Origin: a virus | Length of the DNA: 64,000 nucleotides | Virus record (IMG/VR): IMGVR_UViG_3300025012_000047 | Span: 1-64,000 of that record | Strand: one strand, 5' to 3' | Shown here: positions 26,139-26,987 of the stretch, one piece after another | Layout: each line of letters begins with the position of its first letter | Position numbering within the stretch: position 1 is the first letter of the stretch | Program-made: the position numbers and the translations under genes | The notes under the pieces: model-generated | The model's database searches: none | What the model saw: the letters and a program-made list of their open reading frames with translations, nothing else | Told to the model about the DNA's origin: nothing

Positions 26139-26219
26139 TTTGAGATACATGGGTGGTAAGTCGAAATTGTCTGGTCGAATATCAAGTTATATTAATAATA
26201 TCATAGAGGAGGAATTAAT

Positions 26220-26987
26220 ATCCAATATTTCGGAGGCAAGAACCGTATCAGTAAATACATATCAGAGTTCATTAATTGCCACACACACACACACACACAC
26301 ACACACACACACTATGTAGAACCTTTTTGTGGATCTGTAAATGTAGCATCTAAGGTACATATTAAAAATAAAATATTAAATGACAAGAATCCATATTTAA
26401 TAGCAATGTTTAAAGAGTTACAAAAAGGATGGACACCACCTACTATTGTATCCGAAGAAGATTATGCGAATACTAAAAAGAATCAAGATAAAGAACCACA
26501 TGTAGCAGGATTTATTGGATTTGCGTGTAGTTTTGCAGGTAAGTATTGGGGAGGATATGCGAGAGATTCTAAAGGAGGTGGTGGAAATGGTAACTATGCA
26601 TTAAGAGGCCATAATAGTATTTTAAAGAAGATGGAAGGATTAAAAGATGCACAATTTACATGTAGGGATTTTAAAGATTTAGATTATGAAAATTGTTTAA
26701 TATACTGTGATCCTCCATATAAAGGGACTACGCCTTATTATAAGAAGATACTTGGAGAATTTCCATATGATGATTTTATAGAATGGGTTAAATCACAAAG
26801 TAAAAAGAATACGGTTTTAATTAGTGAATATAAACATAATGTGCCAGAAGATGCTTACATATTGTTAGAAATACCTTCTAAAACAAGTATAAGAGATAAA
26901 AGTGGGAATGTAATAAATACTGTAGAAGTTTTGTATACATATAATAAAGAAATAAATATTAATATGAATGATGTAGTAAATTTGTAA
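26220..26987 (+). CDS. Dam/D12-class N6-adenine DNA methyltransferase with an (AC)16 tract and two alternative N-termini (alternative TTG start at 26140)
   Basis: QYFGGK, YVEPFCGS, NDKN and YCDPPY motifs; AGAGGAGG RBS 7 nt before ATC 26220, in frame through the repeat. Confidence 0.8.
   Translation: MQYFGGKNRISKYISEFINCHTHTHTHTHTHYVEPFCGSVNVASKVHIKNKILNDKNPYLIAMFKELQKGWTPPTIVSEEDYANTKKNQDKEPHVAGFIGFACSFAGKYWGGYARDSKGGGGNGNYALRGHNSILKKMEGLKDAQFTCRDFKDLDYENCLIYCDPPYKGTTPYYKKILGEFPYDDFIEWVKSQSKKNTVLISEYKHNVPEDAYILLEIPSKTSIRDKSGNVINTVEVLYTYNKEININMNDVVNL
26280..26312 (+). repeat. C(AC)16 simple sequence repeat inside the Dam-like MTase
   Basis: Seen directly. Confidence 0.95.

Follow-up and report, generated by a model that had tools for sequence, protein, structure and literature searches.

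A dinucleotide tract inside a phage Dam-family methylase gene is likely to choose between two frame-offset N-termini or neither

The window analysed here, the first 64 kb of the 99,170-base IMG/VR virus record IMGVR_UViG_3300025012_000047 (G+C ~29%), carries a D12/Dam-family N6-adenine methylase gene with a long simple sequence repeat in its 5' part. Tandem Repeats Finder placed a perfect CA tract of 16.5 units (100% matches) at 26280-26312; like the other features at 24819-26987, it is given on the plus strand. The tract separates the N-terminal x-Y-x-G-G-K helix of the enzyme from its FxGxG motif and codes for (HT)n or (TH)n in the loop that joins the N-terminal helix to strand beta-1, and it is the proposed slippage switch of the gene. 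The methylase body follows at 26313-26987, with YVEPFCGS (motif I) at 26313-26336, DPPY at 26709-26720 and the stop codon TAA at 26985-26987. The (CA)16.5 tract is thus a non-triplet repeat inside a reading frame, of a length class known as unstable; the unit number of 16 is taken from a metagenome assembly. When the full 99,170-base record was scanned for repeats of at least six units with a period of 2-5, only this tract and an (AG)8 run at 24845-24860 were found, both at the 5' ends of adjacent methylase genes, and the same scan found no long homopolymer in the record.

Two N-terminal segments stand upstream of the repeat. N-terminus A, the R-type copy, occupies 26140-26319; it begins at TTG 26140, holds R-Y-M-G-G-K at 26143-26160 with an in-frame ATG at 26149, and reads L/M-RYMGGKSKLSGRISSYINNIIEEELISNISEARTVSVNTYQSSLIA(TH)n, passing through the second copy in the other frame and through the repeat before it ends at TAG 26317-26319. 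As assembled, this frame is not fused to the enzyme body. A weak Shine-Dalgarno-like sequence, GGAAGTGG (26126-26133), is found 6 nt before TTG 26140 and overlaps the end of an HNH endonuclease gene, whose stop codon is at 26136-26138. N-terminus B, the Q-type copy, covers 26220-26279, with ATC at the start position followed by Q-Y-F-G-G-K-NRISKYISEFINC, of which QYFGGK corresponds to 26223-26240. Upstream of it lies a strong Shine-Dalgarno sequence, AGAGGAGGA (26205-26213), containing a GGAGG (26208-26212) 7 nt before ATC 26220. Frame B is open from 26199 to TAA 26985-26987 and reads ..GINIQYFGGKNRISKYISEFINC(HT)5H-YVEPFCGS...DPPY, with no ATG, GTG or TTG between TAA 26196 and the x-Y-x-G-G-K motif. 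The DNA of copy B is dual coding, frame A reading the same 26220-26279 as ..SNISEARTVSVNTYQSSLIA. As assembled, the window is in the state in which copy B is in frame with, and fused to, the body.

These readings agree with the original prediction, made from the letters alone, which had described two Dam-family GGK motifs in different frames upstream of one repeat, a start A at TTG 26140 that remains open up to the repeat and stops at TAG 26317, and a start B at ATC 26220, 7 nt after a Shine-Dalgarno sequence and in frame with YVEPFCGS...DPPY at 16 units. Its frame arithmetic (15 or 18 units for A, 16 or 19 for B, 14 or 17 for OFF) was reproduced when we rebuilt the tract in silico with 12-20 units: start A yields a DPPY protein of 279-283 amino acids at 12, 15 or 18 units, start B yields one of 253-257 amino acids at 13, 16 or 19 units, and at 14, 17 or 20 units the full protein is obtained from neither start. 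The gene-caller product for the locus is an open reading frame of 193 amino acids that begins at an internal ATG (26406-26987) and is 100% identical to the database protein P0008 (193 amino acids). Since it is missing the N-terminal helix and motif I, this product is probably no active enzyme.

The Dam-like identity that had been proposed for the gene also held. The window protein matches Pfam PF02086 (D12 class N6-adenine methylase) with an E value of 6.3e-18 and 65.9 bits over a cut-off of 22, as well as PHROG 56 (DNA methyltransferase, E 5e-37), and it contains x-aromatic-x-G-G-K, motif I (xEPFxGxG) and motif IV (DPPY) in the alpha-class order, aligning with the motifs of EcoDam. An AlphaFold2 model of the short form reached a mean predicted local distance difference test score (pLDDT) of 81.5 and a predicted template modelling score (pTM) of 0.83, and placed the N-terminal helix at residues 8-21, a low-confidence loop that corresponds to the repeat at residues 22-30 and strand beta-1 at residues 31-34. 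The best Foldseek matches of this model in the PDB were EcoDam, T4Dam and DpnM (E 1e-10 to 1e-7, template modelling scores 0.5-0.58). A sequence search of the PDB with the single protein gave no match, and with a profile only a weak match to EcoDam. Identity to the solved Dam enzymes is ~15-23%, and since it is only 23% to EcoDam, GATC specificity cannot be assumed for the window enzyme. In a model of a natural long form, that of the related locus L088, the upstream helix (residues 11-26) is of high confidence and beta-1 lies at residues 57-60; residues 25-53, which hold the frame-shifted copy and the repeat, are unstructured (pLDDT <50). Judged by this model, the long form seems to be the ordinary enzyme carrying a flexible insertion in one loop. 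The helix is confident in both forms, and the low confidence of the repeat loop and the frame-shifted spacer makes them look like a tolerated linker.

To place the locus among its homologues we used a protein search, which returned 616 relatives, and the DNA of 213 related loci from viral, metagenome and genome collections, in which the three frames upstream of motif I were read. For 147 non-redundant loci the results were tabulated, choosing at each locus the methylase body most similar to that of the window. The N-termini of the relatives are of two types, a short one, MQYFGGKQKISKYISEFINS-(TH)n-YVEPF, and a long one, MRYFGGKSKIAKYISNYINN..CNISEENKEYQNTYQSILTP-(HT)n-YVEPF, and the linker of the long type comes from the coding DNA of the short N-terminus, translated in the other frame: AAT ATT TCG GAG GAA AAC (N-I-S-E-E-N) versus TAT TTC GGA GGA AAA (Y-F-G-G-K). 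Many database entries of ~180-190 amino acids are internal-ATG calls, as expected of a gene caller when no canonical start is in phase. Among close relatives (60-92% identity) both copies are present in essentially all; the upstream copy reads (M/I/L)RYFGGK[SA]KIAKNISNYINN, and ~83 nt further on the short type MQYFGGKQKISKYISEFINS follows in the other frame. The tract after the downstream copy is (AC)n with n=5-23 in these relatives, or (GA)n in L100, L101 and L104.

The double-GGK layout that the original prediction had described in the window proved to be conserved: two open copies together with a repeat, always a non-triplet one, were found in 60 of the 147 loci, and two open copies without a repeat in 0. 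One open copy is accompanied by a repeat in 13 loci, one copy stands without a repeat in 71, and no motif was found in 3. The association of the repeat with two copies gives a Fisher p of 4e-28 over the 147 loci, a value uncorrected for phylogeny. At this spot the two-copy loci carry (AC)n, (GA)n, (AT)n or polyG. A second clade, 35-47% identical and with FVSLFCGS as its variant of motif I, holds (GA)8-17, (AT)8-9 or G7-G11 in the loop and a second Y-x-G-G-K copy 55-58 nt upstream in the other frame; its members are mostly gut and rumen Clostridia phages and prophages. A FastTree phylogeny of the bodies recovered the window clade (28 rows, support 100) and the second clade (63 rows, support 96) with repeat-free lineages between them. 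The copies are spaced by 83, 80, 77, 68 or 65 nt in the window clade (2 mod 3) and by 58 or 55 nt in the second clade (1 mod 3). Because the two clades are separated by repeat-free lineages and differ in spacing, the layout would either have originated at least twice or go back to a single old origin followed by much turnover. Its carriers comprise groundwater, landfill, rumen and gut phages and prophages of cultured Clostridia, isolate genomes included. Prophage copies of the gene are found, for instance, in Flintibacter muris DSM 110149 (L188, G11), Acutalibacter caecimuris M00118 (L190, two polyG tracts) and Ruminococcus sp. YE282 (L173).

Searches with blastn and tblastn against 50,697 cultured-phage records yielded no match above 45% protein identity and no split gene; the annotations marked '(x2)' in this search proved to be only overlapping neighbour genes. 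Within the window clade, the copies of L112 stand in the opposite order, with a stop-broken Q-type copy upstream and an R-type copy downstream at a spacing of 76 nt, which hints at re-duplication or at an exchange of N-terminal modules between phages. Seven loci of gut Clostridia prophages (L171, L177, L180, L186, L190, L205 and L213) carry, besides the polyG before the body, a second polyG (G7-G10) between the copies, ~100 nt upstream of motif I. This allows up to nine tract-phase combinations; the copies share a frame in four of these loci and differ in L171, L180 and L190.

Next to the reading frames, we looked at the translation signals. Each copy in the relatives has AAGGAG or GGAGG 7-10 nt before the codon that precedes the R or Q; AAGGAG lies at this distance before the start of copy A, and every downstream copy has AGGAG or GGAGG at the same distance. 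The start position of each copy is ATG or a one-letter variant of it in every locus examined. Over the 60 two-copy loci, the upstream starts are ATG (31), ATA (12), TTG (9), ATT (5) and GTG (3), and the downstream starts are ATG (54), ATC (3) and ATA (3). The window and 60 relatives thus resemble the lic2A type of switch in having start codons in two different frames that are each open up to the repeat. In the sub-lineage of the window, which includes L002, L084 and L091, the downstream start is ATC behind a strong Shine-Dalgarno sequence. As an observation in its own right, ATA or ATT upstream starts (among them those of L002, L083, L085-L093, L097 and L098) and ATC or ATA downstream starts (26220 in the window) each stand behind a good Shine-Dalgarno sequence. 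Gene callers miss ATA, ATT and ATC starts. Non-canonical initiation may set the level of each form.

The original prediction took the tract to be variable in length, and across related genomes it is, including genomes with identical flanks. Tract length differs in 15 of 25 pairs with near-identical flanks. In L014 and L035, whose flanks are 100% identical, GA tracts of 17 and 15 nt correspond to a downstream-fused and an OFF state, respectively; L106 and L108 (upstream flank 100% and downstream flank 99% identical) show the same two states with 25 and 21 nt, and L188 and L199 (again 100% upstream and 99% downstream) are upstream-fused with G11 and OFF with G10. The change from 19 to 25 nt between L070 and L078, with flanks 100% identical, leaves the state as it is, both being upstream-fused. 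This variation is seen among the relatives, not in the window's own population. Among the 60 two-copy loci, 24 are OFF, 18 have the downstream copy fused, 14 have the upstream copy fused and 4 carry both copies in the same frame. With all three states present in assemblies, the genotypes lend good support to the claim that the tract picks one of the two N-termini or neither. Moreover, the type of the repeat unit changes at least 9 times on the tree, among AC, GA, AT and G, and the encoded tract peptides are unrelated (His-Thr, Arg-Glu, Tyr-Ile and Gly), which indicates that it is the slippery tract that is conserved and not the peptide. Selection on the repeat-encoded His-Thr peptide, which we had considered, was ruled out on the same grounds, since the GA, AT and G tracts of relatives encode unrelated peptides.

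Taken together, we consider it likely that the locus is a heritable three-state translational switch with an R-form, a Q-form and an OFF state. In the mechanism that we propose, the gene would be a contingency locus in which a non-triplet hypermutable repeat inside the catalytic domain sets the reading frame of the methylase, so that any start upstream of the repeat would be in phase at one of three tract lengths. The stretch before the repeat would have been duplicated with a frame offset, each copy of the helix carrying a Shine-Dalgarno sequence and a start codon, and the downstream copy would double as a spacer in the frame of the upstream one. Replication slippage would add or remove units and the gene would cycle through three heritable states: a long form with a disordered linker of ~30 residues when the upstream copy is joined, a short form when the downstream copy is joined, and OFF when neither is. 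A phage population would then be a mixture of methylation states, and the likely benefit would be bet-hedging, given that some hosts restrict unmethylated DNA whereas others attack DNA that is methylated. Architecture and evolution support the reading in which the tract makes the choice; slippage as the mechanism, translation from both starts, the activity of both forms, a difference between them in level or specificity and the hedge against restriction are what we infer from it.

The explanation that comes nearest to this one keeps the three genotypes and allows for two functional states: the N-termini would be interchangeable, and the duplication would raise the ON fraction from 1/3 to 2/3 at the same specificity. 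We regard it as a real possibility, although not the one to expect. The copies of a locus are 61-63% identical, share the Y-x-G-G-K core and are joined to the same body, which holds the target-recognition region, and ~57% of the two-copy loci are ON. At the residue before the aromatic of x-Y-x-G-G-K, single-copy relatives use either Q (36) or R (25), apart from K in 5 and H in 2, which also fits with equivalence. It is at this very residue, however, that the paired copies depart from what interchangeable modules would do. R/R and Q/Q pairs would be allowed, yet neither occurs among 65 pairs (0/65): the residues are (R,Q) in 33, (Q,R) in 29, (R,H) in 2 and (H,M) in 1, so that 64 of the 65 combine R with Q or H, and this in spite of the copy that carries R having flipped ~8 times on the tree. 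The strength of the start codon also differs systematically between the copies, which interchangeable N-termini would not lead one to expect.

The R/Q residue is aligned by MAFFT with K9 of EcoDam (K9-W-A-G-G-K14 versus R/Q-Y-F-G-G-K). In EcoDam, K9 and Y138 recognise the first base pair of GATC, a contact that is not conserved across the Dam family (PMC4417163). The strictness of the R/Q pairing suggests that the two forms are not equivalent, and their different start-codon strengths mean that they probably differ in amount. That the two N-termini give the same catalytic body two DNA specificities or stringencies is possible, though in our view less likely than not. If it were true, a single tract would shift a phage methylase between one motif, a second motif and no methylation at all. 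A three-state epigenetic switch would have been made from overlapping dual-coded duplicates of a 20-residue module, and it would have arisen or persisted in two clades or more that differ in repeat type and in the spacing of the copies.

It is considerably less probable that the gene is a plain ON/OFF switch, in which the repeat-proximal copy alone would serve and the upstream copy would be an inert remnant of a duplication, inactive when fused. The ~30-residue unstructured insert that the long form has between helix and motif I would be in keeping with this, as would the loss or breakage of the upstream copy in L084, L111, L112, L179 and L195 and the often weak upstream start (ATA, ATT or TTG). 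The pattern of substitutions speaks otherwise. By the NG86 method, taken as the ratio of means over pairs and with the caveats of short segments, non-independent pairs and synonymous divergence (dS) near saturation in the second clade, the ratio of nonsynonymous to synonymous substitution (dN/dS) of the upstream copy is 0.13 in the window clade and 0.21 in the second clade, calculated over its helix, where it does not overlap the other frame; the values are 0.13 and 0.29 for the downstream copy and 0.20 and 0.54 for the first 60 codons of the body. By these ratios, both copies are under purifying selection. In addition, the upstream frame is free of stops through the downstream copy in 60 of the 65 loci with two motif hits and a repeat, against ~24% expected from synonymous-codon resampling of the downstream copy. 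The upstream copy also keeps a Shine-Dalgarno sequence and a start-like codon in every locus examined, and two clades show the layout, each with a spacing of its own (83 nt versus 58 nt). Low dN/dS and a frame held open beyond expectation argue that the upstream copy is no decaying duplicate. N-terminus A as a one-off decayed duplication, the outcome that would have undone the original prediction, is the opposite of what the homologues show, since the layout, the copy's own ribosome-binding site, the start position and a low dN/dS (0.13-0.29 over both copies) are kept in them. A third N-terminus in the third frame was considered as well and ruled out: that frame is closed in 56 of 56 loci.

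We think it very unlikely that there is no heritable switch and that RNA polymerase slippage or ribosomal frameshifting makes both forms together from every genome. Long homopolymer runs are known to give transcriptional slippage in bacteria and mobile elements, and the polyG runs of 7-11 in the second clade would suit it. To our knowledge, however, dinucleotide tracts such as (CA)16 are not established sites of transcriptional slippage. Moreover, the lengths of the DNA tract itself differ between near-identical genomes, and the body is found in all three frames; a switch at the level of the genome and some RNA slippage can, on the other hand, coexist. Finally, we rejected chance or an artefact, that is, an ordinary single-frame methylase with assembly or sequencing errors in low-complexity tracts, as scarcely credible, for although short-read assemblies are unreliable in long repeats and the contigs of four runs break at the tract, errors cannot create the layout, because the second copy, like its ribosome-binding site and its frame offset, is not part of the repeat, and all three are kept in 60 loci drawn from many samples, isolate genomes included.

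Several observations weigh against the three-state switch. For the family, a test on phylogenetically independent pairs for the repeat versus two copies found 7 supported pairs, with 4-5 in the expected direction and 0-1 in the other (median p 0.125), and is underpowered. A stop interrupts the upstream frame in 5 of the 65 loci, which means that the upstream copy does get lost. The Q of the downstream copy appears to be partly forced in the window clade, because ATG-AGA would create a TGA in the upstream frame; from the sequence, this constraint would not apply to the second clade or to upstream copies. Short-read assembly of long dinucleotide and polyG tracts is error-prone, and the state read from a single contig is accordingly uncertain. 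The stretch or part of it occurs in 6 public runs (7 listed) from groundwater, sediment and landfill metagenomes, which we consulted as Logan contigs; those of four runs all end at 26271-26321, at the tract, and heterogeneity within the population is not visible in them.

The remaining observations of this kind concern the window itself. Neither of its starts is ATG: one is TTG, behind a poor ribosome-binding site, and the other is ATC, and output may be low in either ON state as a result. Its copy A (RYMGGKSKLSGRISSY) is more diverged than the copy A of relatives, and in the nearest relative, L084 (90% identical, with the same upstream HNH gene), a 64-nt deletion removes copy A altogether. 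The same deletion of copy A is seen in run X4, which comes from a different groundwater sample: one of its contigs skips 26142-26205, with a joint from 26141 to 26206. The deletion in L084 and in this contig indicates that copy A is being lost in part of the sub-lineage, and in the window the switch may work at low output or have begun to decay. With weak starts, a diverged copy A and a nearest relative that is without it, the case for the window is less strong than that for the family.

The closest known arrangement that we found is that of Haemophilus influenzae lic2A and lic1, in which, according to the papers that cite the original work, initiation codons in two frames lie upstream of the repeat and expression is more than ON/OFF (Dixon et al. 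2007, cited in PMC4235727 and PMC3116884). As far as these accounts go, lic2A resembles the present locus in having starts in two frames, two of three tract lengths that can be translated, and an expression that may depend on the start used. The residues before the repeat form a short leader in lic2A, whereas here the repeat is inside the catalytic domain and each frame encodes a full x-Y-x-G-G-K helix; the two copies share dual-coding DNA where they overlap, and the residue at a DNA-contact position is not the same in both. Also, lic2A is a bacterial surface glycosyltransferase and the window gene a phage methylase. The locus would thus amount to two-start translational phase variation applied to a phage methylase, and what would be new in it is that a functional module has been duplicated and dual-coded.

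Methylases with simple sequence repeats are known from phasevarions, as Type III mod, Type I hsdM/hsdS and Type IIG cj0031 (PMC7383803, PMC13076061, PMC13192263). Like the window gene, these have a repeat inside a methylase gene, of dinucleotide, polyG or longer units; in them it switches methylation stochastically and reversibly, as it would here. They are, however, ON/OFF systems with one ON frame in chromosomal restriction-modification subunits, whereas the D12/Dam methylase described here is of the orphan type, belongs to phages and prophages, and would have two ON frames and two protein forms. A phasevarion role is conceivable for the prophage copies in Clostridia genomes; we do not file the locus as a phasevarion. 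EcoDam, T4Dam and DpnM resemble the window enzyme in the fold, the N-terminal x-[WY]-x-G-G-K, motif I (xEPFxG) and DPPY, but the solved structures have one N-terminus and no repeat, at the low identity given above. In Type I hsdS shufflons (SpnD39III) and Mycoplasma hsd inversions, site-specific recombination takes place between target-recognition domains. If the R-form and the Q-form differed in target, the outcome would be the same as in these systems, a random alternation of specificities; here, repeat slippage would choose between short N-terminal modules, where hsdS systems use recombination.

Repeat contingency loci have also been described in phages, in the receptor-binding proteins of Fletchervirus (2021) and in T2 and T4 (bioRxiv 10.1101/2025.10.21.683753), and a polyG in a methylase gene of phage BPP-1 is mentioned, unstudied, in the latter work. 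As proposed for the window locus, these rely on hypermutable repeats that yield mixed progeny as a bet-hedge. The Fletchervirus, T2, T4 and BPP-1 cases are ON/OFF frameshifts without duplicated frame-offset N-termini, and the repeats of the window type are mostly dinucleotides in a different gene family. Our literature search, with most subscription journals outside it, found no Dam-family methylase in which a repeat separates the N-terminal helix from motif I, and no duplicated frame-offset N-terminal modules.

The locus joins two themes, the phase-variable methylases, a major one in bacterial epigenetics, and the repeat contingency loci of phages, recognised only recently. Duplicating the upstream module in a second frame would offset the cost of having two OFF frames in three, by means of ~60 nt of dual coding, and with ~40% of the related methylase loci sampled the design is widespread. 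Gene callers systematically mis-annotate such genes as truncated or split. If the two forms differed in target, the locus would be a new and very compact specificity switch, and a natural experiment on how the N-terminus of Dam enzymes reads DNA. Either way, it provides a testable prediction about phage hedging where some hosts have restriction-modification systems and others methylation-dependent nucleases.

Lastly, we describe the genes around the methylase. The HNH (homing-type) endonuclease gene at 25437-26138 (PHROG 374, E 6.5e-74) lies directly before start A, whose original ribosome-binding site it may have displaced. Before it lies an MT-A70-family methylase gene (24819-25400; Pfam PF05063, E 3e-23), which has a 5' repeat of its own, the (AG)8 at 24845-24860. 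The reading frame from ATG 24819 runs into this repeat and then meets a stop; DPPW is in the next frame, and (AG)9 would join the two. A second frame break is found at a G5 run (24932-24936). The MT-A70 gene of L084 carries a 25-nt AG tract at the same position before DPPW, and the gene may be a second switchable methylase. On the other side of the Dam-like gene, a second HNH/homing-type endonuclease gene (27653-28654; PHROG 559, E 7e-25) was identified, such genes thus flanking the methylase. A protein of 875 amino acids encoded at 28671-31298 adjoins the methylase module; it gave no Pfam match and matches PHROG 8308, of unknown function, from end to end (E 6e-286).

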